A stretch of 47,334 nucleotides of DNA from a virus, in the IMG/VR virus record IMGVR_UViG_3300045988_179273; one strand, 5' to 3'. Below are positions 6,425 through 20,337 of the stretch, in pieces (the stretch's first letter is position 1; every line of letters starts with the position of its first letter). Below the pieces are notes generated by a model that saw nothing but the letters and a program-made list of their open reading frames with translations, made no database searches and had not been told where the DNA came from. The position numbers and the translations under genes are program-made.

Positions 6425-7468
6425 TTACGAGAGAGAAAGAACCGGATTGGTGTTCGTCAGAACATCCGAGCCGAGCTTGTGGACCGGAATGCCATCCCAA
6501 GCGATAACCTTGCGTCCAGCAATGGTATCGAGGGTAAGCTGCAGGTTGTCTTTGTTGTTAATCTGCCGACGCAAGACAGAAGAGAGCGTGTCGTTCAGAT
6601 AGAACGCGCAGCGGCCCTTGTACTGGTCCGGCAGCAGTTCAACAGCCTGAGTCATCAGGTCAAGCAAGTCAGGCGATCCAGAAGTCTTGTTGGACTTCGA
6701 AAGCTTCGTCGTGTCGATGTTCGCGATACGAACAACCGTGAGCGGGTCGTAAATTGCAAGGCCCAAATCCCAACGGAAGTCGGTGATGAGCTTCCAATAC
6801 TGACGCTGGATTCCACCGGTCGTCTTGTAAGCGCGAATCGGGTCATCGTGAGCTTTGACTTGGAACCCGCCTGTGGAGTCTTCGTTGTGCTGGGGCTTGA
6901 AAAGGTAGTTAAAGGCTGTGTCCCAGCCGATAAGAACGATTTCAGTCTGCTTGTTAGCGGTCGTGCCACCGGCATTAATGATGCGGTCCTTAAAGGCAGG
7001 ATTCGCCGGATTAACGATGTTGAAGAATCCGCGCATCTTGGTCGGGTCGGTAGCCGGGTCACCATAGAAGACGTCACGTACCATGGCCTTCGCAAAGCCG
7101 CGTGCGAACGCCTGGTCACGGCGGAAACGCCATGTATCGCGGTCTTTCGCGGGCTGGTCCATGTATTGGTCGACGTCAATTTCATTGGAGTCAGAACGAC
7201 GTTCGCAGGTGTAGCGAACAGCCGTTCCTTCCGGATTCTCAGCCTTCCAACCTTGGTTGTAGCCGTGGGTTTCGCCTTCCGGATAAACCGTCAGGATTTC
7301 ACCGCGATCGCCCATGCCATCATTGGCGGTCACTAAGGCGGCCTGGTCAAAAAAGGGCATGTAATCACGAATGGTGTGAATAAATACCTTGCGGGCAACG
7401 TCCTTGTCGGAAATAAGTGACTCAAAATCGGCAAGGGAAGTCGGCCCAGTTTTGATAATGTCGGACAT
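6425..7468 (-). CDS. Major capsid protein
   Basis: ORF 6425..7483; start chosen at ATG 7468, preceded by ggaggaatttaaa. 347 aa, directly downstream of the scaffold-like gene, with typical size and order for an HK97-fold MCP. Confidence 0.75.
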   Translation of the reverse strand: MSDIIKTGPTSLADFESLISDKDVARKVFIHTIRDYMPFFDQAALVTANDGMGDRGEILTVYPEGETHGYNQGWKAENPEGTAVRYTCERRSDSNEIDVDQYMDQPAKDRDTWRFRRDQAFARGFAKAMVRDVFYGDPATDPTKMRGFFNIVNPANPAFKDRIINAGGTTANKQTEIVLIGWDTAFNYLFKPQHNEDSTGGFQVKAHDDPIRAYKTTGGIQRQYWKLITDFRWDLGLAIYDPLTVVRIANIDTTKLSKSNKTSGSPDLLDLMTQAVELLPDQYKGRCAFYLNDTLSSVLRRQINNKDNLQLTLDTIAGRKVIAWDGIPVHKLGSDVLTNTNPVLSLS

Positions 7469-7495
7469 TTTAAATTCCTCCAAAATTAAGGGTTT

Positions 7496-8242
7496 TTATC
7501 GACTGTGATAAATATCTGATGCCGTGAAAGTTTCTTTGCCGCCGGCGTTCCCGCGAGGGAAACCGGCTTCGCCGAATGCTTTCCCGGCTCGTGCCAGAAG
7601 CTTCAAAACTCCAGGATGGTTTCCGGCAGGGGAACTCATGAATTCCGCGATGTCGGGGTCAACCTTCCCGTTAGAGTCGTAGGCGAACTTGTCACGCAGG
7701 CGGGCGATATCGCTCAAGTGGTCCGCAATTTCCGGACATGCTTTCGATTTCTCGGCCCACTCTCTGGACACGTTCTGGATTGTTTCGACCTGTCGCTGGG
7801 CCATTAACGGGGCCAGCTCATCGATAACGCCCTGCGCCTTTTCCTGGCTTAGATTGAGCTTCTTAGCTACCTCACCGAATTGGTTCATGACGGCACCATC
7901 AAGCCGTACCCCTTCGGGTGCTTTAAATGCCTCATATTTCTCCGGGGCGCCTTCATCGGAGGGCTTGTCGGCACCATCCTTTTTGTCGCCTTCCGGGGCT
8001 TCGCCTTCTTCGGCTGTTTTGCCCTGAGCGTCTTGCTGGTCAGAGCTTTCTTTGGCACCATCTTCCGGGCCCTTGTTGACGGCGCTATCTAAAAGCGTCG
8101 CAGGAGGGTTGGTCGCAGGCGCAGCTGTCTTGTCGGACGGCTGAGTCTGTGCCGGAGCGGAAGGCGCCGGATTCTGTACACTCGGTGTGCCGGTATCGTT
8201 TGAATTTTCAGCCGGCGTCGTTGTGTTTAATGCGTCTGTCAT
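7496..8242 (-). CDS. Scaffolding protein
   Basis: 248 aa. Low-complexity P/A/E/K-rich N-terminal half and helical C-terminal half. Lies directly upstream of the capsid gene. Confidence 0.6.
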   Translation of the reverse strand: MTDALNTTTPAENSNDTGTPSVQNPAPSAPAQTQPSDKTAAPATNPPATLLDSAVNKGPEDGAKESSDQQDAQGKTAEEGEAPEGDKKDGADKPSDEGAPEKYEAFKAPEGVRLDGAVMNQFGEVAKKLNLSQEKAQGVIDELAPLMAQRQVETIQNVSREWAEKSKACPEIADHLSDIARLRDKFAYDSNGKVDPDIAEFMSSPAGNHPGVLKLLARAGKAFGEAGFPRGNAGGKETFTASDIYHSR

Positions 8243-8534
8243 GGCTTTCCTTAAGCAGTAATTGATAGGAAACCGGGTCGCAGAGACTTAAGAGACTCAG
8301 GCCCACAGAGCGCCGCCCTTCGTTAAATCCCATCGTGAGGGCATTTGTTGAAAAGGACGGCTGGTTAAGCCCTGTAATGTCAAGAATGATTTCCATGGCC
8401 CGACGGCCTTCAGGCGTGGCCATTACGTAAGCAATGGACTTCCTGATTGCGCGGAGCTTTTGCTCATCCTTTTCCGCTTTCTCAGCAATGGCAGCTTCGA
8501 GCGCGGCCTGGTCAAATGGGTCTCTGTTACTCAT
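8208..8534 (-). CDS. Hypothetical head-operon protein (first gene of the minus-strand structural operon)
   Basis: ORF 8208..8588. Internal ATG 8534 (MSNRDPFDQAALE...) is preferred, but neither start has a good SD. Overlaps the scaffold gene by 35 nt. Confidence 0.5.
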   Translation of the reverse strand: MSNRDPFDQAALEAAIAEKAEKDEQKLRAIRKSIAYVMATPEGRRAMEIILDITGLNQPSFSTNALTMGFNEGRRSVGLSLLSLCDPVSYQLLLKESHDRRIKHNDAG

Positions 8535-8647
8535 GGCGGAAATTTTTTCAAGCGAAAATAGGGATATGGGCACAGGGGGTGTGCGCATGAGTTGACTTTG
8601 GCGGTGGAAAATGCTTGCAACTTTTGATAAAGGAGCGTTTGCAGGCT

Positions 8648-9736
8648 ATGGCTATCGGATACATCAAGCGCGTTGCTGGGCCGTTTACGGGGGCCGGCAC
8701 AACGTCTCTACCATTCGGATTTCTTGTCTATAAGCCCCAGGACGTTTATGTCGCCTTGGCCGCGTCTGATATTGCCGAGGCTACGAATCTTGAGTACGGT
8801 ACTGATTACACGGTTGTTTTGAATGCTGACCAGGAGACAACTCCCGGTGGTACGGTGACGCTTACGACGGCTTTGACAGAAGGACAAGTCGCAGCGGTTG
8901 GTTCTGCGCTGGATTACACGCAGCCGACACAGCTTACGAATTTCTCGCGTTTTCCTCCGGAAATCATCAATGATGCACTCGATCGCATCGTGATTCTGAT
9001 ACAGCAGCTACTTGAAAGGTTAGGACGAACGGTTACGGTTCCGGTTACGTCTAGCCAAACTCCGGAAGAGCTTGTTGAGTCGCTACAGAAGGCAGCCGAA
9101 TCTGCCGAGAAAGTGGCATCCGCATATGCGGCCCAAGCCGGCACAAGTGCAGCAGCGAGCGCTGCCTCCGCCACGCTTGCCGAGCAATGGGCCACCAAAA
9201 CCGACGGCAAGGTTCAGGACATCGACTACAGCGCAAAGCACTACGCTTTGGATGCCAGGCAAACCGCAGCCGAGTTACCTGCCAAAGAGCTTGAGTTGGA
9301 GGCGCAGTTAACCGCCCACACGGATACACAGATTGCACGCATTGACGATAAGACAGATGCCGTGCTGGCGGTCAACGCAACGGGGTGCGCAGAGAAGACG
9401 TGGACGCTTACTGCTGACGTTGCGGCCAATACCGAAATCACGATTCCGGGCGGAATCTACTACGTTGTAGGCCGTCACCATTTGCGAGTCGGGTACAACG
9501 GCTTGACGTGCTACATCGGCAGCAATTTCGTTGAGGTCGGGAACACGGACACGAAATCCAACAAATTCAAATTGACCTTTGATGCGAAGTCGGGCGATGA
9601 GCTTGACGTCTGGGTTGCAGCGCTCGGCAAGGCGGATGTGGCGGATGCAATCAATACCGCGCAGGCTGCCAACGATGCGGTTGCAGAACTGAGCCAGAAG
9701 GTTGTTTACAAAGATGCTGAATCGGCAGGGAGTTAA
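8648..9736 (+). CDS. Tail fibre / tail-associated protein
   Basis: ORF from 8615; first ATG at 8648 after aaggag. N-terminal beta region, then the Ala-rich helical stretch AEKVASAYAAQAGTSAAASAASATLAEQWA typical of fibre shafts. First gene of the plus-strand fibre cluster. Confidence 0.6.
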   Translation: MAIGYIKRVAGPFTGAGTTSLPFGFLVYKPQDVYVALAASDIAEATNLEYGTDYTVVLNADQETTPGGTVTLTTALTEGQVAAVGSALDYTQPTQLTNFSRFPPEIINDALDRIVILIQQLLERLGRTVTVPVTSSQTPEELVESLQKAAESAEKVASAYAAQAGTSAAASAASATLAEQWATKTDGKVQDIDYSAKHYALDARQTAAELPAKELELEAQLTAHTDTQIARIDDKTDAVLAVNATGCAEKTWTLTADVAANTEITIPGGIYYVVGRHHLRVGYNGLTCYIGSNFVEVGNTDTKSNKFKLTFDAKSGDELDVWVAALGKADVADAINTAQAANDAVAELSQKVVYKDAESAGS

Positions 9737-9742
9737 TACATC

Positions 9743-10714
9743 ATGGCGAACTTAGTTGAGACAACACTTTATTCTCATGAAGGTGCAACAAACACGCCTC
9801 TTGCGCCTGCGACCAAAGCGACGCAGGTGCAGATTGCGAACGTTGAAGGGCAAGCGTCTAATGTGGAGTCGGAAATCGTTGCGCTCCGCACAAAACTCAA
9901 TCAGGCGATTGACGCAGGCGTTCACTTCCGTGGCGCAGTCAATTCGACAACGCCATTGCCGACCGTTGCATACAAAGCAGGCTGGCAGTACATCGTGGGC
10001 GAGGCAGGCACATATGCCGGCAACGTGTGCGAGGCGGGCGACTACATCATCTGCGTGAAGGACTACGCAAGTGGGAGCGCATCCGATTCGGATTGGACTG
10101 TCTTGCAGAAAAACCTTGACGGTGCAGTGACAGGACCGTCAACGAGTGTTGCCAATCACGTGGCCGTGTTCGATGGCACAGGTGGCTCGAAGATTAAGGA
10201 CAGCGGTTTCACAATCGGGAAGAGTGTTCCTGCGGATGCGCAATTTACGGACACACAGTACAAGCCTGCGACCGATAAAGCCGATGGCTTAATGACGGCT
10301 GCGCAGTACACAAAACTTGCAGGCATCGAGACGGGTGCAGACAAGACTGACGCTGACAATGTGGAGGCAGCAGGTGCTTTCATGAAGGCTACGGACAATT
10401 TGGACTCCGTGGCTGACAGCACGACCTACGTGAAGATGAAAGCGACCGAGCGCACGAAGCTCGAAGGCGTTGCGACCGGCGCTGAAGTCAATCAGAACGC
10501 TTTCGCAAAAGTGAAAGTGGGCGAGACAACCATTACCGCAGGTGCAAAGCAAGACACACTGGAGATTGAAGCGGGCGAGGGCGTGACGATTACGGCCAGT
10601 GGCAAGAAGGTCACGATCAAAGAGACATACATCGATTCGTGCGTTGTCAGCTCTTTGGACAACGTACCTGCGAATCTGCGCAATGGTGGCTTGATCATCT
10701 TGAAGGATGCCTAA
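9743..10714 (+). CDS. Tail fibre-like protein
   Basis: 323-aa ORF with repeated T/D/K-rich segments (KADGLMTAAQYTKLAGIETGADKT..., ERTKLEGVATGAEVN) and a DGAVTGPSTSV..VAVFDGTGGSKIKDSG motif seen in fibre proteins. Confidence 0.55.
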   Translation: MANLVETTLYSHEGATNTPLAPATKATQVQIANVEGQASNVESEIVALRTKLNQAIDAGVHFRGAVNSTTPLPTVAYKAGWQYIVGEAGTYAGNVCEAGDYIICVKDYASGSASDSDWTVLQKNLDGAVTGPSTSVANHVAVFDGTGGSKIKDSGFTIGKSVPADAQFTDTQYKPATDKADGLMTAAQYTKLAGIETGADKTDADNVEAAGAFMKATDNLDSVADSTTYVKMKATERTKLEGVATGAEVNQNAFAKVKVGETTITAGAKQDTLEIEAGEGVTITASGKKVTIKETYIDSCVVSSLDNVPANLRNGGLIILKDA

Positions 10715-10854
10715 TGTTGACTGAACTTCGTCAGGTGCTTAAAGACCCAATCTCTAGAAAGTTTTTCTGGAAGGGCGTTCGAGACGGTTTGGTTATCGGA
10801 TGCCTAATCATGCTTCCGGCCTTCCTTATCGTTTGCTTGAGGGTTTTTGAATGA
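10714..10854 (+). CDS. Small membrane protein (46 aa)
   Basis: ATG 10714 overlaps the upstream TAA (TAATG), and the stop overlaps the next ATG (ATGA). Hydrophobic segment VIGCLIMLPAFLIVCL. Confidence 0.45.
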   Translation: MLTELRQVLKDPISRKFFWKGVRDGLVIGCLIMLPAFLIVCLRVFE

Positions 10855-11360
10855 CTGACAGCCTGTACGTCAAAACAGCGGGCGGAATCCTCCCGATTGC
10901 CATCGAGGGCACGGGAGGGAGCGGTGGCTCTACGACGATTGAAGCGGAGACGCACACGATAACGGAGACGGCAACGAGTGCGCAGTCGTACTCGATTGGC
11001 AATTGCGCCTACGTGATGGTTTTCGTGAATTCTGTCTTAGGTGTGGACGGCGTGACCTATGGCATCACGGGCGGGACGACGTTGCAGTTTACCGACGTGA
11101 TTCCTGTTGGTAGTGAGGTTGTCATCGTCAAATTCAAGACCGCAGGGAGCGTCACGCCGACACCGACGTATGCGATTGACAGCGCGCTGTCTGCGACTTC
11201 GACTAACGCGGTACAGAACAGGGTGGTGAAGGCGGCGATTGACGGAAAGGCGGACGAGGCGCAAGTAAACGAAATCTTGAGTCCGCTAAACACGAAGGTC
11301 ACGAGTTTACAAGCGTCAATTGATTCGGCTTACGCCAAATATGTTGCGGAGATTAGGTAA
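10851..11360 (+). CDS. Tail fibre protein (short)
   Basis: 169 aa. Contains the fibre motif DSALSATSTNAVQNRVVKAAIDGK, which recurs in the 12910 gene (DSALSSTSENPVQNKVITSALDGK). Confidence 0.6.
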   Translation: MTDSLYVKTAGGILPIAIEGTGGSGGSTTIEAETHTITETATSAQSYSIGNCAYVMVFVNSVLGVDGVTYGITGGTTLQFTDVIPVGSEVVIVKFKTAGSVTPTPTYAIDSALSATSTNAVQNRVVKAAIDGKADEAQVNEILSPLNTKVTSLQASIDSAYAKYVAEIR

Positions 11361-11874
11361 TGGCGACATTAGAAGAAATGGTGGATAAAGCAATACAAGT
11401 AGCCGTGTTACGGGCACATCCCGTCGGGAGTTACTTCATCACGGAATCCGCCGACAACCCTCACGAAATTTTAGGGGGGGGGTATGGCAAAAATTGGAAG
11501 GGCGATTCCTGCTCGGCGCAAATGCGTCGTACTCCATTGGAAGTGAGGGAGGCGAGGATATGCACACACTGACAGAGAACGAATTGCCATCGCATACACA
11601 CGACGCAACGATTAAAGCGTTCACGTACAACGGTAACAAGATTCAGTTTTTCAATGCCGCGAGCGCAAATAAAGGTGGCTCGTGGTATGGAGACTCGGAG
11701 TTTTCAATCGCGGCGGCGCGAAAGCTGAACGGAACGTCTGGCGTTCAGCACGTCCTAACCGAAGCGAACTTAATTACACGTAAAGCAATTGATACGGCAA
11801 ATACAGGTGGTGGCGCATCCCACAACAATATGCCGCCCTACCGAGCCGTGAACATTTGGAAGAGGACAGCGTAA
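11360..11874 (+). pseudogene. Tail-collar-type fibre gene split by a frameshift at a G9 tract
   Basis: The upstream frame ends ...AHPVGSYFITESADNPHEILGGG. The next frame continues VWQKLEGRFLLGANASYSIGSEGGEDMHTLTENELPSHTH...GGGASHNNMPPYRAVNIWKRTA, together one tail-collar-type protein. G10 or G7 would restore a single ORF of about 171 aa. Confidence 0.8.
11474..11482 (+). repeat. Homopolymeric G9 tract at the frameshift point
   Basis: Counted directly: ttaggggggg|gg = 9 consecutive G. Confidence 0.95.
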
Positions 11875-12320
11875 TGGCTACGTTTGAAGAGACAATCGAG
11901 AAGGCTGTTCAGGCGGCGGTCAAGAGGGCAAACGCTTATACCGATACGAAGGTCGGGGCATTGCCTCGAATCCCTCATATTTATGCCACAACGATGGTCG
12001 GTCTCGGCTTCACCAAAGGCGCAACGGTATCCGTCAAAGACTTCCTGTTGGCGCTTTACAACCAGGGCTACCAAGCAGGCGACATTGTCTCGTTCGGCTA
12101 TCTGGACGCAGGCGCGGCCATTGTTTCCGACGGAACGAACACAATCAACATCAATTGCGTGGACGTAATCATCGGCACGCTTCAGAACTTAAACAACGCA
12201 TGGGCACGCGCTTCCGTCCTCGTGTTCGGGACGGGCTACGCAGGCAAATGCGCGCGCATCGGAGCGAGTACCGGCGGAACGGCAGGCACGTTATTCGTTG
12301 GTGAAGTGCAGAACTTATAG
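11874..12320 (+). CDS. Fibre-cluster protein sharing the N-terminal module of the preceding gene
   Basis: ATG 11874 overlaps TAA (TAATG). N-terminus MATFEETIEKAVQAAVKRANA versus MATLEEMVDKAIQVAVLRAHP at 11360. Confidence 0.6.
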   Translation: MATFEETIEKAVQAAVKRANAYTDTKVGALPRIPHIYATTMVGLGFTKGATVSVKDFLLALYNQGYQAGDIVSFGYLDAGAAIVSDGTNTININCVDVIIGTLQNLNNAWARASVLVFGTGYAGKCARIGASTGGTAGTLFVGEVQNL

Positions 12321-12331
12321 GAGATAGACAT

Positions 12332-12907
12332 ATGTCTGAAACAACTTACATCGGAACGCAATTCGCCAAGCCGTTGCAGAACGACAAGATTGAGCAAAAC
12401 ACAGGTACTGAAGAGTTACCGCGTTACGAACTTGTCGACAACCCTGCCCCGAACACGTATAAAAAGTATGCGGAAGCGGCGCAATGGTGCAACGAAGATG
12501 GCTGGGCGACGATTGAGGACAAGGGTGATTACTACGAAGTGGTTGCAATTCCTAAACCGCCCGAGCCAACAGCCGAAGAGATTGCCGAGCGAGAAGCGGC
12601 CGAGGCTCTTACGCAAGCCAAGAAAGAGCGAGCCGAGGCGGTGAGCAGGTTGACGGTTACGGTCGATGGCATGGTATTTGACGCAGACGAAACGAGCCAA
12701 AACCGTATGAGCCGTGTGGTCGCGGGTGCGCAGGCTCTTGGCATTGACCAAAGCACAACGCAAGTTTGGGTGCTGGCTGACAATACAGTGGCAACACCGA
12801 CCGTTGCGCAGTTAGCGCAGGCGCTGAAACTTGCGGGCGCAGCGCAGACAGCGCTGTGGACTGTCCCGTACCAGACCGAAACCGAAACGAACACCACCGG
12901 AGAATAA
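12332..12907 (+). CDS. DUF4376-like fibre-associated protein (possible fibre assembly/accessory protein)
   Basis: 191 aa with SD aggag. C-terminal LTVTVDGMVFDADETSQNRMSRVV...VWVLADNTVATPTVAQLAQAL resembles the DUF4376 pattern found next to fibre genes (recollection). Confidence 0.5.
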   Translation: MSETTYIGTQFAKPLQNDKIEQNTGTEELPRYELVDNPAPNTYKKYAEAAQWCNEDGWATIEDKGDYYEVVAIPKPPEPTAEEIAEREAAEALTQAKKERAEAVSRLTVTVDGMVFDADETSQNRMSRVVAGAQALGIDQSTTQVWVLADNTVATPTVAQLAQALKLAGAAQTALWTVPYQTETETNTTGE

Positions 12908-12909
12908 TC

Positions 12910-13800
12910 ATGGCATTCCCGAAACTACTACAAAAACTTTTCCAGAACAATGGAGCGGGGGACAAACTCAATCCCGACATCATCCCCGACATCCCGTACT
13001 CCAAAGTCACCGACGCGCCTTCCGTTGATTCTGCGCTCTCGTCTACGAGCGAGAACCCTGTTCAGAACAAAGTTATCACCTCCGCCCTTGATGGGAAATT
13101 AAGTACAAGTGGCGGTACAGTTAACGGTCCGGTAACAATCGCTAGTACAATTACCACTAGCGAGTTAGCAAGACCCGCCGGGGTGAAAGAGTTCTATATA
13201 CGGGGCAAAGATGATGACGGATGCCTTCAGCTCTATCCCGGGGGGACTTCCAGTTTTTCCGCTAAGAAAACTGCCTCGCTTCTTCTAACTACTATAAACT
13301 ACACTGGCATCTCAATCCCTGCGGGGTCGTTCTATTTAAATGCTATGGATGCCACTACAGGGGCAAAGTCGCTTGTAGGCTCACCCAACGGCACATTGTG
13401 GTGGTGCGGAAAGAGTCTCACGGGAGGGCTAACCGTCGTCGCCGAGTCCTACAGCGCTAACTCCTGGTACCGCAAATACTCCGACGGGTGGATTGAGCAG
13501 TGGGTGCTTACGCCACAAGTGAGTTTTACAAGTTGGAATCAGACGAAAACGTGGGTTACATTCCCTGTCGCTCTTACATCCACCTTTTATTGGACAATTG
13601 CTGGTAATCGCCAAACTTCATATAGTAGCTATTACAGCCAAGAATCGGGTGATTCAGGCGTTGATACCTATAAAGGCTTAGTTACGCTTACCGTTAATAA
13701 AACAGGGATAACAGGTAAATCCTCATGGCCATCAGGGTCAGACCACTACAATACTGTTACTTTGCCTGCAAACGAATGGCTTTACGTATTCGGCAAATAA
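12910..13800 (+). CDS. Tail fibre with switchable C-terminal receptor-binding domain (expressed orientation)
   Basis: ATG 12910 after ggaga. Fibre motif DSALSSTSENPVQNKVITSALDGK. C-terminal SANSWYRKYSDGWIEQ... domain. The coding sequence contains the left inverted repeat at 13455-13500. Confidence 0.75.
   Translation: MAFPKLLQKLFQNNGAGDKLNPDIIPDIPYSKVTDAPSVDSALSSTSENPVQNKVITSALDGKLSTSGGTVNGPVTIASTITTSELARPAGVKEFYIRGKDDDGCLQLYPGGTSSFSAKKTASLLLTTINYTGISIPAGSFYLNAMDATTGAKSLVGSPNGTLWWCGKSLTGGLTVVAESYSANSWYRKYSDGWIEQWVLTPQVSFTSWNQTKTWVTFPVALTSTFYWTIAGNRQTSYSSYYSQESGDSGVDTYKGLVTLTVNKTGITGKSSWPSGSDHYNTVTLPANEWLYVFGK
13455..13500. repeat. Left inverted repeat of the invertible fibre segment
   Basis: cgctaacTCctggtaccgcaaatactccgacgggtggattgagcag equals the reverse complement of 14065-14110, except for 2 nt (TC vs AG, both Ser codons). 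The core 13464-13500 is 37/37 identical. Confidence 0.95.
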
Positions 13801-14130
13801 CTACTTGCCACAGGCATATATCTCATAGGCAAAATAATCATAAGATGGGAAGTAAGTGCCGATGTTTATACCTGTAGTGGTTTTACTAAAGCTAGTGTAT
13901 TGTATTTCGTCAGGTAGACTTTCATCGCCAGAAGACATGTTATATGTTTTTAAACTTGATGCGACTTTGGCATCACAAGCAAAATATTGAGTATTGGAGA
14001 ACGCTAGGGGAAATGAAAGCATTACGTAATTAGTGCCTTTTGCCTTGAATGAGCCACTAATACCCTGCTCAATCCACCCGTCGGAGTATTTGCGGTACCA
14101 GCTGTTAGCGGGGCCGTTTTCGGAAAGCAA
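13801..14130 (-). other. Silent alternative fibre C-terminal cassette (no ATG, no SD)
   Basis: The minus-strand frame is preceded by TAA and opens ...ENGPANSWYRKYSDGWIEQGISGSF...YEIYACGK*. It shares ANSWYRKYSDGWIEQ with the expressed gene. Its stop abuts the stop of 12910..13800 exactly (13800|13801). Confidence 0.75.
14065..14110. repeat. Right inverted repeat of the invertible fibre segment
   Basis: Reverse complement matches 13455-13500 (44/46; 37-nt perfect core 14065-14101). Confidence 0.95.
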
Positions 14131-14196
14131 TTAACTTGCTGATGATTCAAACAGAAGCTAAACTCCACTCTGACTCAATAGAGGGGAGGGGTTTGC

Positions 14197-14595
14197 ATGA
14201 AAAAGTATCTTTTCAGCAGTTTCGCCTTGTGCGCAGCATTGGCTTTAGTTGGATGCCAAGCGCCGTACACAAACAATATGCCTGCGCCGCAGGAAACGAC
14301 GCTAGGCACAGTACAGAAAGCCATCCACAAGGGCATGACGCAGGACGAAGTGGTTGCAGAACTCGGCGCGCCCAACATGGTCAGCCGAGATAAGGAAGGT
14401 CTTGAGGTTTGGGTTTATGACAAGGCAAGCACCACCGTGACTACTTCCGGCTCGTCTTCCTACGGCACGCTGATTTTAGTCGGAGCATCGGCTCATCAAT
14501 CGGCTAGCTCGATTTCCCAGAAATCGCTCACGTTGATTTTGAAATTCAAGGACGCTGTTCTGTCCGAATACTCGTATCGCTACTCAACTTTCTAA
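14197..14595 (+). CDS. Lipoprotein (moron)
   Basis: SD gaggggagggg. Signal peptide with lipobox MKKYLFSSFALCAALALVGC. The mature part (GMTQDEVVAELGAPNMVSRDKEGLEVWVY) looks like a BamE/SmpA-OmlA-type fold. Confidence 0.75.
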   Translation: MKKYLFSSFALCAALALVGCQAPYTNNMPAPQETTLGTVQKAIHKGMTQDEVVAELGAPNMVSRDKEGLEVWVYDKASTTVTTSGSSSYGTLILVGASAHQSASSISQKSLTLILKFKDAVLSEYSYRYSTF

Positions 14596-14607
14596 CCGGG
14601 AGTCCAA

Positions 14608-15107
14608 ATGAAAAAACTTTGTTTCCTTGCGCTAGCTGTTCCGATGTTGTTCACGGGGTGCGTGACTGTTGCGTGACTGTTGATTCTGTCTTTGGTGAAG
14701 CCGATGCTCCGGTTTCGGCCGTTGCGTTACAGGCTTTGCAAACACGCGAGTTTAATGCGACGCAAGATCAAGCATTTCAATCTGTTATCTCTACGTTCCA
14801 AGACTATGGTTATGTGGTTACGTCTGCAGACAAAGCGACCGGCTTAATCATGGGCAAGACGACTTCCGATGCGACAATCAGTGGCTTCACAGGGATTACA
14901 CGTGTTGAGTACAACAAGGCATCTGCCTTTATTGAACAATTAAGCGCGAACAAGGTAAAGATTCGCGTGAGCATTGTTAAGTACGTTTCAGCAACAGGGG
15001 CTTATGGCGGAGGAGGAGAGAAGGAAGTGGTTCGCACGAAGCCGCAGGTTTACCAAGACATCTTCAACAAAATTGAGCAGTCGCTTTTCTTGAAAAAGAA
15101 TCTCTAA
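14608..15107 (+). pseudogene. Second lipoprotein gene, frameshifted by an 11-bp tandem duplication
   Basis: ATG 14608 (SD gggag) gives MKKLCFLALAVPMLFTGCVTVA, then stop at 14674. Deleting one copy of tgcgtgactgt joins it in frame to VTVDSVFGEADAPVSAVALQ... (ORF ending 15107), giving about 162 aa. Confidence 0.8.
14659..14682 (+). repeat. 11-bp perfect tandem duplication (tgcgtgactgt x2, plus tg)
   Basis: Read directly: ggg tgcgtgactgt tgcgtgactgt tgattc. Confidence 0.95.
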
Positions 15108-15113
15108 AACAAA

Positions 15114-15137
15114 GGCCCCGTTCATGGGGCTTTTTTT
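15114..15137 (+). terminator. Rho-independent terminator after the lipoprotein pair
   Basis: gcccc-gttcat-ggggc followed by ttttttt, 7 nt after the stop at 15107. Confidence 0.85.
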
Positions 15138-15226
15138 CGCTATCCCCTACAACGTGAAGATGAGGAAAGGAAGTAAAGAGACGTCTCGGCCAGCTATAAG
15201 CCTTTGCTCAATTGGAGGAATCTAAA

Positions 15227-15613
15227 ATGTATGAAGTTTTTGGTTTCTTTGCGTTTGTTGCCTGTTTTGCGACTTACGGCATTTTGAAGGCGCTTTATAA
15301 GTATGCTGAAGATTTTTATTACTTTGATAACGATGGAGACGTAGCGAATTGGATTGTCGACGGACTCTTCGTTATCGGGATGATTGCTCTGAAATTGGTT
15401 TTGAACCCTCATGGCGACTTTTCGCCGATTACTATCGTCAGATTGGTTTTGATAGGTTATTTCTTTTCGGGAACATTTTCAATCGTCTCGTACTTTTGCC
15501 ATGGAAGAATTCCTGCCAGCCGTTTCTGGGCATTCGCATTCCGTTGGAATTCTCTAAGATTAGTAGCCTTTGTTCTCCTGTACTCTGTAGTTTTTATCGT
15601 TCTTTTTCAGTAG
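15227..15613 (+). CDS. Polytopic membrane protein (moron)
   Basis: ATG 15227 after ggaggaatctaaa. 128 aa with about 4 hydrophobic segments (VFGFFAFVACFATYGIL, LFVIGMIALKLVL, IVRLVLIGYFFSGTFSIVSYF, LVAFVLLYSVVFIVLF). Confidence 0.65.
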   Translation: MYEVFGFFAFVACFATYGILKALYKYAEDFYYFDNDGDVANWIVDGLFVIGMIALKLVLNPHGDFSPITIVRLVLIGYFFSGTFSIVSYFCHGRIPASRFWAFAFRWNSLRLVAFVLLYSVVFIVLFQ

Positions 15614-15640
15614 TTCTTGTTGCTGGTCGCCGGAATACAA

Positions 15641-15658
15641 AGCCCCTTTGTGGGGGCT
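15641..15658 (+). terminator. Probable terminator hairpin after the membrane-protein gene
   Basis: agcccc-tttgt-gggggct followed by a weak T tract (tattagtg). Confidence 0.45.
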
Positions 15659-15704
15659 TATTAGTGCCTGTGTTGCATCTATCAAATTATGCAACATTTC
15701 CTCT

Positions 15705-15713: not shown

Positions 15714-15838
15714 TGTTGGGCGAACTCTTAAAGTACCCCCGAAACGAACTTTAATTTGACCCCCTTGGGAGTCAAAAAATGGGGAAACTAAGAGATCAAA
15801 CACATAATGAGGGTTTCCATTTCAAAAGGAGACCCGAC

Positions 15839-17056
15839 ATGCTTCCACTCGAAGCTATCAACAGAATTCGGGTACTCTCAGAACGGGGCATGGGATCCAA
15901 AGCGATAGCCAAATCAACGGGGATCTCGAGAAATACCGTTCGCAAGTACCTGTCTCACCTTCAGACACTAACGCCCATTTCTTCAGAGGTGCAACGCCCA
16001 AGTCGACTCGACTCTTTCCGAGATCAGATCCACGAGTGGTTCCTTGCTTGCAGAGGACATTGTCCGGTTGTACTGCGCAAGATTCAGAGTGAACTCGGGG
16101 TATCGATTAGCTTGCGACAGCTACAAAAGTACTGTCAGCCATGGCGTACTCAAGAGCTACACGTCAAAGAAATGACTCAGCGCTACGAAGTGCCTCCCGG
16201 GGATGAAATGCAAATTGACTTCGGGTTCGACGAAGTCTTAATCGCCGGAGTCAAGACTCGCATATGCGTGTTTGTTGCGGTGCTGAGCTACTCCAGAAGA
16301 GTCTTTGCCAAGCTGTATCCGGTGGAGAATCAGGCAGCCTGGTTAAACGGCATCGAATCCGCCTTTGAGTATTTCAGCGGTGTTCCCGTTGCTGTTGTCT
16401 CCGACAACACACGCTGTCTCGTTGACGGAAGAGCGGAACATGGCCAAACCATCTTCAACCGTCGCTATCTGCAGCTATCAAGGTATTGGCAATTTGTTCC
16501 GGTCAATTGCAAACCCTACAGAGCCAAGACCAAGGGCAAGGTTGAGCGCATGGTTGGTTACGTTAAAACGAGCTGTTTGTCCGGACTTGAGGCGCCTGAC
16601 CTTCATGATGCCCAGAAACAAGTTGATGCTTGGATGCGCATGGTTGCGGACGTGCGTCGCATTGATGGCTTGGAGGGACGCCCAATTGATCGATACCAAG
16701 CTGAGGTTATGGCATTAAAACCTTATATGGGTCCGAACTTGAGCCAACTAAGACTGGAAACGAGAAAGATAGATATCAGCGGTCGAATTCAAATTGACGG
16801 CGTACAGTACTTAATCCCTGGAACAGATGCCGGTACTGTCGTCGATGTTTTCATTGAGGAAGAAGCAATTGCGGTGTTTCTTCATGGTCAATGTATCACG
16901 CAACTGAACCGAACCGCTGACGCTTATCAAGCTAGCACATTTAAGCATCGACAGAAAGAAATTTGGGAGCCGGGCAATGTCCAAAGCAGTGGTCTGGATC
17001 GATCTTTAAGGGAGTACGACCGTTTTATTGAGGAGAACAGCCATGGCCGTTGTTAA
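15839..17056 (+). CDS. istA: IS21-family transposase IstA
   Basis: ATG 15839 after aaggag. N-terminal HTH (GMGSKAIAKSTGISRNTVRKYL). DDE-type core (EMQIDFG, VVSDN, KTKGKVER). Confidence 0.9.
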   Translation: MLPLEAINRIRVLSERGMGSKAIAKSTGISRNTVRKYLSHLQTLTPISSEVQRPSRLDSFRDQIHEWFLACRGHCPVVLRKIQSELGVSISLRQLQKYCQPWRTQELHVKEMTQRYEVPPGDEMQIDFGFDEVLIAGVKTRICVFVAVLSYSRRVFAKLYPVENQAAWLNGIESAFEYFSGVPVAVVSDNTRCLVDGRAEHGQTIFNRRYLQLSRYWQFVPVNCKPYRAKTKGKVERMVGYVKTSCLSGLEAPDLHDAQKQVDAWMRMVADVRRIDGLEGRPIDRYQAEVMALKPYMGPNLSQLRLETRKIDISGRIQIDGVQYLIPGTDAGTVVDVFIEEEAIAVFLHGQCITQLNRTADAYQASTFKHRQKEIWEPGNVQSSGLDRSLREYDRFIEENSHGRC

Positions 17057-17843
17057 GGCGATTTCCACTCAAGAGCTTGCGGCTTTGGCCAACCGGCTAC
17101 GCTTGACATTAATTCGTGACCGAATGGAAGAAATGTTGACGATGGCCGTGGACAAGAAGTTATCTCCAAGAGAAACTCTGGAATTCTTCTTTCGTCAAGA
17201 AATTCGGCGTCGAGAAGAAAATCGTATCCGACAAGCCATCATGGGGGCTCATTTTCCTGCAGTACGGACGTTGGAAGATTTTGATTTTGAGGCTCAACCA
17301 TCAATTGATGTGAAACAACTAAAAGAATTGGCACAACTCGAATGGGTTGGGCAGGCTAAAAATGTTCTTTTTCTCGGACCGCCGGGAGTCGGAAAGACTC
17401 ATTTGGCCATTGCATTGGGACGGGAGGCAATCAAACTGGGAATGAGTGTTGCCTTTTACTCTGCTGAAGAGCTTGGATCGTTGTTGGACAGGGCGCTAAA
17501 GGAAGGAACAATTAAACAAAAGCTGTATCAGCTTTCAAAACCAAAATTGCTAGTCCTTGACGAATTTGGCTATACGCCGTTTTCGTCAGTAAGTGCGCCA
17601 CTGCTGTTTCGGTTGATTAACAGCCGATACGAACAGAAAAGCATACTGATCACCAGCAACAAGCCCGTTTCCGAGTGGGCCGGCGTGTTGGGGGATGCAA
17701 CCCTGACAACTGCTATGCTGGACAGATTGTTGCATCACAGTGAAATCATCGTGATTCGCGGAGACAGCTACCGTCTCCTGGAGAAACGAAAGGAAGGACT
17801 TTTAACCTCAGCCAGGGCTGTTGGTACAGCTTTGACTGATTAA
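17043..17843 (+). CDS. istB: IS21-family helper ATPase IstB
   Basis: ATG 17043 after gaggag, overlapping the istA end. Walker A GPPGVGKTH, Walker B LLVLDEFG. Typical IstB/DnaC-like length. Confidence 0.9.
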   Translation: MAVVKAISTQELAALANRLRLTLIRDRMEEMLTMAVDKKLSPRETLEFFFRQEIRRREENRIRQAIMGAHFPAVRTLEDFDFEAQPSIDVKQLKELAQLEWVGQAKNVLFLGPPGVGKTHLAIALGREAIKLGMSVAFYSAEELGSLLDRALKEGTIKQKLYQLSKPKLLVLDEFGYTPFSSVSAPLLFRLINSRYEQKSILITSNKPVSEWAGVLGDATLTTAMLDRLLHHSEIIVIRGDSYRLLEKRKEGLLTSARAVGTALTD

Positions 17844-17900
17844 CAACAGGGGCTCAATTTAAACGACGTTTTCGGGGGTCAATTCAGAGGACGCTTGACA

Positions 17901-18268: not shown

Positions 18269-18754
18269 ATGGCTGAATTTGCTTCCAAAGGTGTGGCGGG
18301 AAGCGCCCTGGGACTTGGAATCGCAGGCCTCTCTGTCGCGCTGTTAAACGGTGGTTTGGGTGGCATCGGCGGCATCCTCGGTGGCGGGAATACCAACGCC
18401 TACGTCGATTCTTTGAACTCTAAGATTGCCGAACTCAATGCCGAGAAATACTCGGACAAAGTCGGCATCGAAGTCTTCAAGGCCTCGCGCGAATCGGACG
18501 CGAAAACTAACGCTCGCTTCGAGGAAATCGCTCGGACGATTGCTGACATGCGCGTTCGTGAAGCGCAGACTGCAGGGAAAATCGATCTCGTTGCTGCGAC
18601 TGCCAATCAGGGCATTGCCGCGAACAGCGCGGCCATCGCTTGCCTGCAGAACACGGTCGCCGGCATCACGAAGATCGTTGTGCCCAATAGTTCCATCTGT
18701 CCTGGGTGGGGGAATGTGACGATTACTCCGGCCTCTACAACTACTGCTGGCTAA
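18269..18754 (+). CDS. Hypothetical protein with Gly-rich hydrophobic N-terminus and coiled-coil
   Basis: 161 aa with SD aggag. N-terminus GVAGSALGLGIAGLSVALLNGGLGGIGGILGGG. Function unknown. Confidence 0.6.
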   Translation: MAEFASKGVAGSALGLGIAGLSVALLNGGLGGIGGILGGGNTNAYVDSLNSKIAELNAEKYSDKVGIEVFKASRESDAKTNARFEEIARTIADMRVREAQTAGKIDLVAATANQGIAANSAAIACLQNTVAGITKIVVPNSSICPGWGNVTITPASTTTAG

Positions 18755-18771
18755 CGTAATGGGAGGGCATC

Positions 18772-19104
18772 ATGAAACTGCGAACAAACAAAGTTCCGGA
18801 AATCGTCTCTGAGTTCCTGCTTACCCGCGTTGTATCCAAAGCACCTACGTCTGCGTCACAGTTTGGCTTGGGGTTCCTCGTGCCTTATGTGTCGCGGAGC
18901 GCTCAGGGAATGGCAGAAAACCCCCTTCTTAAAACCCTTGGTGTTGTAGATGGCGAAGGCTCAATTGACCTTGATACAGCACGTAACTCGGCGATTGAAG
19001 CGCTCGGGAAGGCCGGAGGCAAGGTGACAATGTACGGCGTTACGTTTGATAGCACGGACATCGATGCCCTCTTCGAAATGGCAAGAAAATACTCTGACTC
19101 TTAA
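18772..19104 (+). CDS. Hypothetical protein
   Basis: 110-aa ORF with SD gggaggg. No motif recognised. Confidence 0.55.
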   Translation: MKLRTNKVPEIVSEFLLTRVVSKAPTSASQFGLGFLVPYVSRSAQGMAENPLLKTLGVVDGEGSIDLDTARNSAIEALGKAGGKVTMYGVTFDSTDIDALFEMARKYSDS

Positions 19105-19119
19105 CGGGAGACTCTAAAA

Positions 19120-19293
19120 ATGGATATGAAGGACTTACGCAAGTTGCGCAAAGAACAAACCGAGGAAGCGCTGCTTGATCGCATCGATGAAATCCTTGAC
19201 GAGGACAACATCAGCTCTGTTGATGTTGAAGAAATCAAGGATTGTTGGAAGGCAATTTGGTACGCGCACCAGTGCTGTAAAGAAACTGCGTAA
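19120..19293 (+). CDS. Small acidic hypothetical protein (57 aa; below the ORF-track cutoff)
   Basis: Translated by hand: MDMKDLRKLRKEQTEEALLDRIDEILDEDNISSVDVEEIKDCWKAIWYAHQCCKETA*. It fills the gap before the holin. The antisense ORF 19135..19389 is judged spurious. Confidence 0.4.
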   Translation: MDMKDLRKLRKEQTEEALLDRIDEILDEDNISSVDVEEIKDCWKAIWYAHQCCKETA

Positions 19294-19423
19294 CAGAGAC
19301 ATTTGGAAAGGGAACCACACGGCCCGAGGACAGGACATTCCTTGGGCCATTTTTATGGGTGTGCGCATATCGAGTGACCCGTTGGCCAAAATCCTTGCAA
19401 GTTACAAAACGAGGGGTTTTGCC

Positions 19424-19864
19424 ATGCTTTCTGAGATTTTGACGGAGTTAATACCGTCCTATTTTGAGCGGTTTGTGCTCGCAATAGGCGGCGTTCTTGG
19501 TTGGATGTGGGGCATGGCCTTTGGGGACGTCCACCTTGCCATGGCCTGGTTTTTGACGATTATGCTGAGTGACTATGTTTCCGGCGTCTATCGCGCCTTA
19601 CGCATGGGAGAATACAGCAGCAAGAAGGGACTTAATGGGATCATCAAAAAGTTTCTTATTTTGTGGCTGTGCGCGCTGGCGCATGGGCTAGACGTTATCG
19701 TCGGACTGACCATTATTCAGTCCGCATTCATCGGGGCCTTTGGGCTCAATGAAATGCTTTCGATTATTGAAAACCTCGGCAGGGTCCATCCGGGACTAAT
19801 CCCAGAGCAGATTCAAAACTTTCTCACCGAGTTAAAAACGCGAGGATTCGCTCGTAGATACTAA
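19424..19864 (+). CDS. Holin (phage_holin_4 / LL-H-type)
   Basis: ATG 19424 after gagggg. 146 aa with multiple TM segments and MLSDYVSGVYRALRMGEYSSKKGLNGIIKKFLIL, typical of this holin family. Directly upstream of the lysozyme gene. Confidence 0.75.
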   Translation: MLSEILTELIPSYFERFVLAIGGVLGWMWGMAFGDVHLAMAWFLTIMLSDYVSGVYRALRMGEYSSKKGLNGIIKKFLILWLCALAHGLDVIVGLTIIQSAFIGAFGLNEMLSIIENLGRVHPGLIPEQIQNFLTELKTRGFARRY

Positions 19865-19878
19865 GTTAGGAGACATAA

Positions 19879-20337
19879 GTGGCCACTTATAACCCGTTCT
19901 CATCATATAACCCAAATGTTGCAATTGACTTTATCCGAAATTTCGAAGGATGTCGGCTCAAAGCGTACCAGTGCTCTGCGGGGCGATGGACAATCGGCTA
20001 CGGGCACACGGCAGGCGTGACCGAGGGCATGGCGATTAGCCAAGCGCACGCCGAGGATTTGCTCCGAGCCGACGTGATTGACTGCGCTGGGCGTATGGCA
20101 TCGTACATCAAAGTGCCCGTGACTAAATGGCAGTACATCGCGCTTGTATCGCTGTCGTTCAATGTGGGCGACCTGAGACGCAAAGCGCCGAAACTGCTGC
20201 ACTATCTCAACGCAGGTCAGGAAGACAAGGCCGCGCACGAGTTTTTAGACATTGTGAAAGCGGGTGGAGTTCCGTCCAAAGGGCTGAAGACTCGGCGAGA
20301 GAAAGAAGCCAAACTCTTTTTGAGGACTGAGGCATGA
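19879..20337 (+). CDS. Endolysin, phage lysozyme (GH24-type)
   Basis: GTG start after aggag. Contains IRNFEGCRLKAYQCSAGRWTIGYGHT, the catalytic-Glu motif of T4/lambda-type lysozymes. Confidence 0.9.
   Translation: MATYNPFSSYNPNVAIDFIRNFEGCRLKAYQCSAGRWTIGYGHTAGVTEGMAISQAHAEDLLRADVIDCAGRMASYIKVPVTKWQYIALVSLSFNVGDLRRKAPKLLHYLNAGQEDKAAHEFLDIVKAGGVPSKGLKTRREKEAKLFLRTEA

Follow-up and report, generated by a model that had tools for sequence, protein, structure and literature searches.

A probable two-state tail-fibre switch without a recognizable invertase gene in a BPP-1-like temperate podophage of the human gut

The end of the tail-fibre gene in a temperate BPP-1-like podophage very probably forms a two-state host-range switch. 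The window (the whole stretch of 47,334 nucleotides that was analysed) is the complete circular 47.2-kb genome of this phage from the human gut, and its host probably belongs to the Sutterellaceae. Circularity was evident from a 119-nt overlap between the termini, and the structural genes (Bbp16, Bbp19, and the GP7 capsid protein in Pfam) placed the phage in the BPP-1 lineage. A nucleotide search with positions 12000-15700 gave no matches among GenBank phages and complete E. coli genomes, thereby indicating an undescribed phage that does not belong to E. coli. In the proposed switch, the conserved box SWYRKYSDGWIEQ would end the constant part of the fibre and open the receptor-binding tip domain. 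Inverting positions 13501-14064 would then fuse the silent tip to the shaft in frame and silence the other tip. No description of this switch was found in the literature. The gene and the segment consist of the following parts.

12910-13800, plus strand: tail-fibre gene, 296 aa (ATG at 12910, stop at 13798-13800)
12910-13454, plus strand: constant N-terminus and shaft of the fibre, followed by the box and then by the expressed tip A
13455-13500, plus strand: left arm of the inverted repeat, which is the junction box at the start of the tip domain and encodes (S)ANSWYRKYSDGWIEQ
13483-13500, plus strand, with its partner at 14065-14082, minus strand: inner 18-nt core GACGGGTGGATTGAGCAG, the same in both arms in 17 of 17 genomes
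13501-13800, plus strand: expressed tip cassette, type A, 99 codons and a stop, ending VFGK-stop
13801-14064, minus strand: silent tip cassette, type D, 87 codons and a stop, ending ACGK-stop, startless
14065-14110, minus strand: right arm, the copy of the box ahead of the silent cassette
14128-14133, minus strand: in-frame TAA closing the silent frame (14131-14133), then a TTG without a ribosome-binding site

The fibre gene is surrounded by tail-fibre or baseplate-like genes and stands at the end of the tail-gene block, a position that we take to be equivalent to the BPP-1 arrangement. Its product matched PHROG 2557, and the best PDB match of its AlphaFold model was the R1 pyocin fibre (6cl5_A, E = 8.4e-4). 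Among 599 homologues, the N-terminal part was conserved and the C-termini were diverse. Many of the homologues carried the PF21882 domain (Gp53-like_C), which is present in those bearing other tips. Searched by itself, neither cassette matched Pfam; both matched the same region of PHROG 2557, and tips A and D were 32% identical by BLASTP (E = 2e-12). No close relatives of tip D were found among 1.84 billion representative proteins, and its remote relatives are located at the C-terminal ends of larger proteins. The intact frame of tip D and the retained family motifs FPLAFSNTxY and ACGK-stop suggest that this tip is functional. Upstream of the fibre gene, every relative carries a DUF4376 gene, which could encode a constant chaperone.

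The initial annotation described two back-to-back cassettes with abutting stops, both ending in GK, and a 46-nt inverted repeat with a 37-nt perfect core, and all of these features were confirmed. The stops abut as TAA at 13798-13800 and CTA (= TAG) at 13801-13803. The two arms of 46 nt each are separated by 564 nt and are identical at 44 of 46 positions (96% complementary; arm-against-arm self-blast, E = 6e-14), with a perfect run of 37 nt at 13464-13500 and 14065-14101. The two mismatches had been reported as synonymous Ser codons; they are synonymous, but both fall in a single Ser codon, TCC in one arm and AGC in the other. The left arm is in frame within the fibre ORF, and the box in the fibre genes of relatives encodes SWYRKYSDGWIEQ. 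The core GACGGGTGGATTGAGCAG occurs in the window only at the two arm sites, about 0.03 matches being expected by chance even with three mismatches allowed, and no third copy or near-copy (att-like site) was found near int or elsewhere in the window. The 564 nt between the arms contain nothing beyond the two tip cassettes, and the window holds no further copy of either. On the minus strand, the frame reads ANSWYRKYSDGWIEQ and then the 87 codons of cassette D, and the closing TAA precedes the W of the box by 10 codons. The minus cassette had also been said to lack a Shine-Dalgarno sequence and a start codon and to be preceded by a stop. The first and the last of these statements hold, but a TTG at 14128-14130 directly follows the closing TAA. 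This TTG accounts for the 109-aa ORF called by the ORF finder and annotated by JGI as hypothetical protein P0121. No Shine-Dalgarno-like or promoter-like site was found ahead of the silent frame.

The claim of a fibre-switch architecture was borne out by its conservation. The same layout of box, expressed tip, startless silent tip, and inverted box is kept in at least 16 related genomes that differ elsewhere by 5-30% (L003/L004/L043, L005, L006, L011, L027, L030, L034, L035, L041, L048, L053, L199, L201, L202, L203, and L204). Every genome examined contained one segment and two arms, and the silent frames of the relatives have only 5-16 startless codons between the closing stop and the W of the box. 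Type A is expressed in L003, L004, L035, and L201 and occupies the silent position in L034 and L204. Across the phages, A is paired with B, C, D, and H; B with A, C, and H; and F with E and G. The cassettes thus reassort freely among phages, and most of them are under diversifying selection. In silent-versus-silent comparisons, tip B had a dN/dS of 0.06. The silent F cassette of L005 and L048 has lost its stop and reads through about 50 codons further.

Inversion of the segment, as proposed in the initial annotation, is supported by whole-segment reversals among the relatives. In four pairs of relatives, both members have the same two cassettes between collinear flanks but in opposite orientations, which indicates repeated natural inversion of the segment. 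In the L006/L011 reversal, the segment was 95.9% identical and the downstream flank 98.2% identical. The segment was 92.2% identical in L027/L041, and in L004/L204 it was 97.0% identical with a shaft identity of 90.5%. In the L034 genome, tip A of the window is reversed and silent. Segment identity in the reversed pairs was at least as high as flank identity. One of the flipped forms derives from a k=141 assembly, in which the orientation is unambiguous because the k-mer exceeds the repeat length. The phage of the window itself was in a single orientation in three of three assemblies, and its flipped form, with its own shaft joined to tip D, was not found among public proteins.

The statement that no invertase gene lies nearby was extended to the whole circular genome, where a Pfam search of about 50 ORFs found no serine recombinase and no second tyrosine recombinase. 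Shufflon-type or Rci-like recombinases were likewise absent from the genome. In tblastn searches with Hin and Gin, the best match in the window had an E value of 0.07 and no locus of the family was matched; as a positive control, the same queries detected a resolvase-like gene in the unrelated locus L153. The gix/hix-type consensus TTATCNAAACCNNGGTTTNGATAA was unmatched in the window with up to three mismatches. Within 10 kb of the segment in the relatives, the only recombinases were unrelated phage integrases located 4-5 kb downstream (L011, L201, and L204). Small ORFs near the segment were considered as recombinase candidates and rejected. Those beside the silent arm are lipoprotein- or membrane-like in the window, and in many relatives the adjoining ORF encodes a hydrophobic small membrane protein of 107-110 aa. 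L004 and L011 have a 217-aa ORF close to the segment; considered as a resolvase, it was identified as an HNH homing endonuclease. A diversity-generating retroelement (DGR) was ruled out by the absence of a further cassette copy and of a reverse transcriptase, no domain of which was found in the genome.

The recombination genes that had been listed for this genome were a P4-type integrase 11 kb away, an IS21 transposase, and an exonuclease/annealase pair. The first two and the exonuclease were found, but the annealase is only presumed. The site-specific and general recombination functions are encoded as follows.

1433-2632, plus strand: P4-type tyrosine integrase (Pfam Arm-DNA-bind_3, Phage_int_M, and Phage_integrase), the sole site-specific recombinase of the phage proper, 11 kb from the segment
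21146-21544, minus strand: single-strand DNA-binding protein, part of the recombination toolkit (Pfam PF00436)
23553-24656, minus strand: 367-aa putative annealase partner, assigned from gene position alone, overlapping the exonuclease gene
24530-25426, minus strand: YqaJ-type exonuclease (Pfam PF09588, E = 1.3e-38)
30846-31244, plus strand: RusA-like Holliday-junction resolvase, part of the recombination toolkit (PHROG 34, E = 1e-14)

The sole match of the 367-aa protein was PHROG 3657, a family of unknown function, and it had no matches in Pfam, NCBIfam, or PDB sequences. The window, L199, and L201 contain an exonuclease/annealase pair, and none was found in the examined parts of the genomes of L006 and L011. 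The IS21 element, 2187 bp long (window 15714-17900), was inserted recently between genes, with an overlap of about 9 bp consistent with target duplication, and L034 and L203 lack it and are otherwise collinear. Because the element is missing from these near-identical relatives, it destroyed no invertase, and the possibility of an invertase disrupted under or beside it was rejected.

We give about an even chance to inversion by homologous recombination between the two copies of the box, with no dedicated invertase. The agents would be the exonuclease/annealase/single-strand-binding/RusA set of the phage during replication, or RecA of the host in the lysogen. The flip rate would be expected to be low, yet sufficient given phage population sizes. 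Gene conversion would keep the arms alike, and the box would double as a joint for tip exchange between coinfecting phages. Homologous recombination is favoured by exchange points that are spread over the box and by concerted evolution of the arms, both of which emerge from comparison of the sequences as evolutionary patterns rather than as mapped crossovers. The DNA of the box varies between lineages and the arms match within a genome (L053 and L018). Genome-specific synonymous variants are common to both arms, namely, TATCGG..AGC in L030, TCC..GGA in L011, and AGC..GGG in L006. The two alleles of the Ser codons (TCC/AGY) occur in all four of four combinations, and the allele of the second Ser is unlinked to cassette type, thereby indicating exchange points on both sides of the second Ser codon. 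Synonymous-site conservation of the box relative to the fibre N-terminus is a measure inflated by these six-fold Ser alleles. The exact box can still be translated from the outer part of the silent arm in 15 of the 17 genomes; the 20 codon differences in these 15 genomes, which have a full-length box, are all synonymous, and the six nonsynonymous arm differences belong to one shared decayed flank. If crossovers always took place in the inner core, the exact box in the outer silent arm would not be maintained. The length and outer limit of the arms, which range from 27 to 71 nt, follow the flank type. The repeat is shared by phages whose integrases and replication/recombination modules are unrelated.

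The short identities in some of the genomes, however, weigh against homologous recombination. The longest perfect identity between the arms is 37 bp in the window, 42-60 bp in eight relatives, and 18-29 bp in eight others. The L011, L030, L034, L053, L202, and L203 types belong to those with perfect arms of 42-60 bp, and the arms of the L004, L005, and L035 types are interrupted. Published minima for pairing are 23-27 bp (Red-beta) and 31-34 bp (RecA); in favour of homologous recombination, Rad52-like phage recombinases act on short and diverged repeats, also when inversion is assayed on lambda (PMC3945230). The 18-29 bp in 8 of 17 genomes are thus at or below the published minima, yet the L004/L204 lineage has flipped. 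The identity of the core between arms in all genomes is also expected from a site-specific enzyme. In addition, the mosaic of arm variants could reflect recombination between phages over evolutionary time, in which case it would be uninformative on inversion.

A site-specific recombinase acting in trans, from the host chromosome or a coresident prophage, on the invariant core GAYGGNTGGATTGARCA(GG) is a possible explanation that we regard as doubtful. In each of the 17 genomes, the inner 18 nt match exactly between the arms, including those in which the outer parts have mismatches or decay (L199, L204, and L018), and flipping has occurred in lineages with only 18-31 bp of identity (L004/L204). 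Cases of invertible regions that lack a recombinase gene in the vicinity have been described (PMC9881135). The combination of a conserved inner part with a variable outer part is reminiscent of asymmetric shufflon sfx sites, a loose resemblance drawn from the description of those sites as a 12-bp variable arm, a 7-bp core, and a 12-bp conserved arm (PMC11852207). Nevertheless, no candidate enzyme was found in the phage genomes searched, the gix/hix consensus was unmatched within three mismatches, and the core has no obvious dyad symmetry. Conservation of the residues DGWIEQ in close phages explains the conserved core equally well. A fixed inner crossover would leave two observations unexplained, which are the synonymous-perfect outer silent arm and the exchange points flanking the second Ser codon. 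An unrecognized kind of invertase, either encoded by the host or among the unannotated phage proteins, that acts on an asymmetric coding site of about 18-24 bp is conceivable, though we think it unlikely. A site of 18-24 bp of this kind would be common to a family of Sutterellaceae phages from the gut whose integration and replication modules are otherwise unrelated.

It is improbable that there is no programmed switch and that the downstream cassette is a spare part or relic, with reversals as rare accidents that were later selected. The free reassortment of cassettes, the lost stop of the silent F cassette in L005 and L048, and the orphan status of tip D in the window are consistent with a relic. 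However, the inverted box, the abutting stops, and an intact startless frame are kept in the at least 16 genomes despite their divergence elsewhere. Four independent reversals among about 20 genomes, with the segment at least as similar as its flanks, also argue against accident. The silent copies of tip B are under selection, and half of the genomes have arms without a mismatch over 42-60 nt.

A double role of the phage tyrosine integrase as the invertase is very improbable. As noted above, the phage proper has no other site-specific recombinase, and Dorgai et al. are said to have described in 1993 Int-catalysed inversion in HK022 lysogens. However, the repeat core has no third copy or near-copy by int or elsewhere in the window, and the repeated motifs in the region proximal to int are different ones, next to a tRNA-like CCGCCACCA end in the same region. 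Moreover, the integrase of L011 and L204 is a 343-aa XerC-like enzyme that resembles no window ORF by BLASTP, and L201 carries a 365-aa enzyme despite having the same box. Finally, that the minus-strand ORF at 13801-14130 is an independent gene starting from the TTG at 14130, with nothing inverting, is scarcely credible: although the ORF finder and JGI both call the 109-aa protein, ribosome-binding and promoter-like sites are absent, the corresponding frames of relatives are startless and run into a stop 5-16 codons before the W of the box, the product would consist of a tip domain lacking the shaft needed for attachment to the virion, and the same cassettes are fused to shafts in other genomes.

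The initial annotation had likened the segment to the Mu Gin/G, P1 Cin/C, and R64 systems. The likeness to Mu G is functional only, as the segment has no gix/hix-like sites, no internal chaperone genes, and no adjacent recombinase. As in Mu G/Gin, P1 C/Cin, e14 P/Pin, and p15B Min, the invertible segment lies inside a tail-fibre gene with repeats at the junction of the constant and variable parts. Opposite strands encode alternative C-terminal receptor-binding parts, of which only the one attached to the constant region is expressed, and the outcome is a switch of host range. In contrast to that group, there is no serine invertase either adjacent or genome-wide, no enhancer-bearing invertase gene, no gix/hix-like crossover site, and no cassette-specific chaperone gene (U/U') inside the segment. 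The segment is also shorter (0.56 kb, compared with about 3 kb in Mu), and the phage is a BPP-1-like podovirus. Shufflons of receptor-binding proteins, such as Rin, reportedly occur in Bifidobacterium prophages. R64-type shufflons, which use the tyrosine invertase Rci, share the swapping of adhesin C-terminal segments at short intragenic repeats, and in both systems the repeats have a conserved and a variable part, a likeness drawn by description (PMC11852207). However, Rci-like genes are normally colocated with the shufflon (PMC11852207), and the present phage has no Rci-like gene and has one segment with two cassettes instead of several segments.

The DGR of BPP-1, which switches tropism through Mtd, belongs to the same lineage and serves the same purpose of altering the receptor-binding end of the tail fibre. 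Unlike that system, the switch has neither a reverse transcriptase nor a template repeat, and the variation is a choice between two stored tips rather than mutagenesis. Inversion between inverted repeats without a dedicated adjacent enzyme is shared with a lambda assay, in which inversion with Red/RecA is driven by homology (PMC3945230), and with Anabaena cyanophages, which have an invertible region of about 30 kb whose recombinase was not identified (bioRxiv 10.64898/2026.02.14.705889). These cases also share orientation differences among close relatives that are independent of phylogeny. The present repeats, in contrast, are 10-20 times shorter (27-71 nt compared with 400-700 nt) and intragenic, so that a protein is respliced rather than genes being reordered.

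Ever since Mu and P1 were studied, host-range switching through fibre inversion has been associated with an invertase next to the segment, and screens for programmed inversions rely on that neighbour. A human-gut phage family nevertheless keeps a fibre switch without the enzyme, and screens that require a recombinase would therefore miss such switches. Because none of the phages in the group encodes a flipping enzyme of the usual kind, the host-range switching seems to be unconventional. Should homology by itself drive flipping, nothing more is needed than a short coding box whose copies gene conversion keeps identical; the same box would also be the joint for tip trading between phages, and the length of uninterrupted identity would be a tunable control of the rate. 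If a trans-acting enzyme is responsible, a new pair of invertase and site is involved. On either reading, the switch provides a handle on the receptors and host range of Sutterellaceae phages, a poorly studied gut group, and gives the relatives of BPP-1 a second route to tropism change besides retro-mutagenesis.

The two arms of the inverted repeat are 46 nt long and match at 44/46 positions, with a spacing of 564 nt and a longest perfect run of 37 nt. Self-comparison of the window recovered the repeat with an E value of 6e-14. The parts of the segment are as follows.

13455-13500, plus strand, left arm of the inverted repeat, in frame in the fibre ORF
13501-13800, plus strand, expressed cassette, tip type A
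13801-14064, minus strand, silent cassette, tip type D
14065-14110, minus strand, right arm of the inverted repeat, box peptide and then an 87-codon cassette

The left arm lies in a 296-aa ORF (12910-13800) and codes for (S)ANSWYRKYSDGWIEQ, and the minus strand of the right arm codes for the identical (S)ANSWYRKYSDGWIEQ peptide ahead of its cassette. Both cassettes end in GK and a stop codon, and the stops abut at 13800/13801. The initial annotation had described this repeat, its 37-nt perfect core and the convergent cassettes exactly as found here, but it had placed the two mismatches in separate Ser codons, and both bases fall in one (TCC versus AGC). It had also described the silent cassette as preceded by a stop and lacking a start codon and a Shine-Dalgarno sequence. 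The stop (TAA, 14131-14133) and the missing Shine-Dalgarno sequence were confirmed; the start-less part needs amending, because the codon after the stop is TTG, from which ORF finders and JGI call a 109-aa minus-strand ORF. This ORF lacks both a ribosome-binding site and a promoter-like site. As to decay of the minus-strand cassette, which had been named as a sign of a dead duplication, tip D has an unbroken reading frame with the family motifs, and no close relative was found among 1.84 billion representative proteins. The 18-nt inner core of the arms had no further copy in the window with up to 3 mismatches allowed (chance expectation, ~0.03 matches).

Relatives were recovered by a fibre-protein search and a fully degenerate DNA pattern for WYRKYSDGWIEQ. 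The same layout was shared by the related genomes L003/L004/L043, L005, L006, L011, L027, L030, L034, L035, L041, L048, L053, L199, L201, L202, L203, and L204, and was present in a more distant phage, L018. In these relatives, the inverted box (the conserved stretch at the constant/variable junction of the fibre) spans 27-71 nt, the arms are 420-630 nt apart, and two convergent cassettes have abutting stops. A stop closes the silent frame, which has no start codon, 5-16 codons before the box W; in L199, L202, L053, and L204 it is open for 27-81 codons upstream, but either the box is decayed or a suitably placed start is missing. About 10 cassette types were distinguished, each found expressed or silent.

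Cassette types and the genomes that carry them
Type A: expressed in the window, L004, L035, L201; silent in L034, L204
Type B: expressed in L011, L204; silent in L004, L006, L201, L202, L203
Type C: expressed in L006, L203; silent in L011, L035
Type F: expressed in L041; silent in L005, L027, L048
Type G: expressed in L027; silent in L041

Across the phages carrying the box, the fibre module was its sole constant partner. Fibre tips of many unrelated phages (Bacteroidales, a Thermoguttaceae MAG, and a cyanobacterial MAG) also begin with the peptide WYRKYSDGWIEQ, at L049/L052 (Bacteroidales MAG contig JAFTWQ010000019.1) and at 17 single-copy loci among L007-L046; at these loci the DNA has diverged fully and no inverted copy accompanies the box. 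The WYRKYSDGWIEQ box is a widespread tip-domain motif, and an inverted second copy was found only in the Sutterellaceae-phage group and, separately, in L018. In L005 (10634-11158) and L048, the silent F cassette has lost its stop after ..VVGK and runs ~50 codons further, antisense to the cassette that is expressed; the L005 fibre ORF also forms an in-frame fusion with the gene upstream (500 aa, corresponding to P0013). This stop loss and fusion could reflect decay or a sequencing frameshift.

Comparison of the DNA showed four pairs in which the entire segment is reversed while the flanks stay collinear.

L006 and L011: 588 bp reversed, 95.9% identity; downstream flank collinear, 98.2%
L027 and L041: 664 bp reversed, 92.2%; flanks collinear
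L004 and L204: 602 bp reversed, 97.0%; shaft collinear at 90.5%, downstream at 92.9%
Window and L034: tip A reversed, 90.3%; flanks collinear, 90.5-93%

The L204 form was present in two assemblies, one of them with k=141, far above the repeat length, and its orientation is thus not an assembly choice. In addition, the window-type shaft is joined to tip B in one public protein (P0003) and to tip C in two others (P0004 and P0005). The reversed pairs and these shaft-tip joins indicate that the segment has inverted repeatedly in nature and that cassettes reassort among phages. For the phage family, these comparisons support the proposed reading as an invertible fibre-tip switch that lacks an invertase gene; in the window phage itself, the orientation was identical in 3/3 assemblies.

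The window ends share a 119-nt direct overlap, which makes it a circular assembly of ~47,215 bp, and its gene content points to a temperate BPP-1-like podophage.

1433-2632, P4-type tyrosine integrase
about 5974-8588, Bbp16, GP7 capsid protein, and Bbp19
15714-17900, IS21 element, 2187 bp (IstA 15779-17056, IstB 17028-17843)
19175-20337, holin and lysozyme
21146-21544, SSB
24530-25426, YqaJ exonuclease
27288-28007, cI-like repressor
30846-31244, RusA-like resolvase
31624-34078, terminase small subunit (Pfam) and presumed large subunit
35366-37054, head-tail connector (portal)
40059-45749, 1896-aa polyvalent protein with LPD3, LPD23, and ddrB-ParB domains

The large terminase subunit was presumed from size and position; its 361 relatives attest conservation but not function. 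Polyvalent-protein counterparts in relatives showed only ~26% identity and 1659-3163 aa. The integrase is placed among structural genes, not at the edge of the early region, and the stretch upstream of it (1066-1432), which contains repeats of ATGGAC(C) and a CCGCCACCA resembling a tRNA 3' end, probably represents attP and its arm-type sites. Genes upstream of the fibre gene (8615-12907) are tail-fibre or baseplate-like. The fibre protein had 599 homologues with a conserved N terminus and shaft and diverse C termini, many with Pfam Gp53-like_C, and its AlphaFold model (moderate confidence, pLDDT 68) matched only the R1 pyocin fibre significantly in the PDB. Related contigs came from human-gut metagenomes, one of them in a Duodenibacillus MAG (family Sutterellaceae). 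The host of BPP-1 belongs to the Burkholderiales, which this placement fits.

The neighbourhood of the segment varied. The lysis block (holin, lysozyme, and a 155-aa ORF) lies directly past the segment on the opposite strand in L004, L006, L011, L027, L035, L041, L201, L202, and L204, and further on, on the fibre strand, in the window (18269-20986), L034, L199, and L203. Beside the silent arm, a minus-strand gene for a 107-110-aa hydrophobic (membrane) protein occurs in L006 (11285-11605), L011 (11408-11728), L030, L199, L201, and L202; it points toward the silent cassette, and its stop codon directly adjoins the right arm on the outer side. At that position, the window has plus-strand lipoprotein- or membrane-like ORFs instead (14197-14595, 14619-15107, and 15212-15613). 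The genes beside the silent arm look like exchangeable moron genes. An HNH/NUMOD4 homing-endonuclease gene, which the window lacks, separates the lysis block from the conserved gene that follows in L004 (6468-7121), L011 (13746-14399), and L201 (15399-15923).

The absence of an invertase gene held up. Pfam scans of ~50 ORFs over the whole circle returned only the integrase, the IS21 proteins, and the YqaJ exonuclease, with RusA assigned by PHROG. Hin and Gin queries found nothing by tblastn in the window (best E = 0.07) or in any related locus; they did detect a resolvase-like gene in an unrelated locus, indicating that the queries work. The gix/hix consensus had no match in the window. Destruction of an invertase by IS21 was rejected, because the element is intergenic and missing from the near-identical and otherwise collinear L034 and L203; its junction has a ~9-bp overlap consistent with target-site duplication, and it is a recent insertion in this one phage. 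The switch works like Mu G and P1 C, as the initial annotation had proposed, but it is not a member of that family: invertase, crossover sites, and chaperone genes were all tested for and absent in the window. The initial annotation had also named the R64 shufflon as having this architecture; the segment is not a shufflon. No description of such a system was found in the searchable literature, in which invertible regions without a nearby recombinase are noted in general terms (PMC9881135).

Our best estimate, held tentatively at close to an even chance, is that the segment would invert by homologous recombination between the box copies. The two arms of one genome have common synonymous variants, which differ from genome to genome. 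The alleles of the two Ser codons are found in every possible combination (4/4), and the second Ser allele shows no linkage to cassette type, thereby placing exchange points on both sides of that codon. With a crossover fixed in the inner core, translation would never reach the outer part of the silent arm, but in 15/17 genomes this part still encodes the box exactly, with 20 synonymous and 0 nonsynonymous differences. Six nonsynonymous outer-arm differences all belong to one decayed flank common to L199 and L204. The phage has an exonuclease, SSB, and RusA. Published minimal pairing lengths are 23-27 bp (Red-beta) and 31-34 bp (RecA), and short, diverged repeats are recombined by phage annealases, as also seen in a lambda inversion assay (PMC3945230). 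The 37-bp perfect run of the window exceeds both thresholds. However, uninterrupted identity is limited to 18-29 bp in half of the genomes, among them a lineage that has flipped. The main rival, a site-specific enzyme acting in trans, is rather doubtful; it would also account for the inner 18 nt, which are identical between the arms in every genome. Flipping by the phage's own integrase is unlikely, because no att-like copy of the box was found and phages with the same box have unrelated integrases (399-aa P4-type in the window and L199, 343-aa XerC-like in L011 and L204, and 365 aa in L201). Replication modules are also unrelated among the phages sharing the box.

Most tip types showed a strong excess of amino-acid change. 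Within one tip type, dN/dS was 2-7 (window 13501-13800 and cassettes in L003, L004, L034, L035, L027, L041, and L030). Tip A of the window differed from the silent A of L034 by 28.7 nonsynonymous and 1.3 synonymous differences; the 30 differences fell at codon positions 1/2/3 as 17/9/4, with many transversions. Mutagenesis by a diversity-generating retroelement (DGR) was rejected because neither a reverse transcriptase nor a template copy was found in the window, and a DGR was likewise rejected as the identity of the segment. The excess reflects intense diversifying selection or else a targeted process of unknown kind. Tip B was under purifying selection, even between silent copies (dN/dS 0.06). 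Both patterns require that currently silent cassettes are expressed often enough for selection to act on them.
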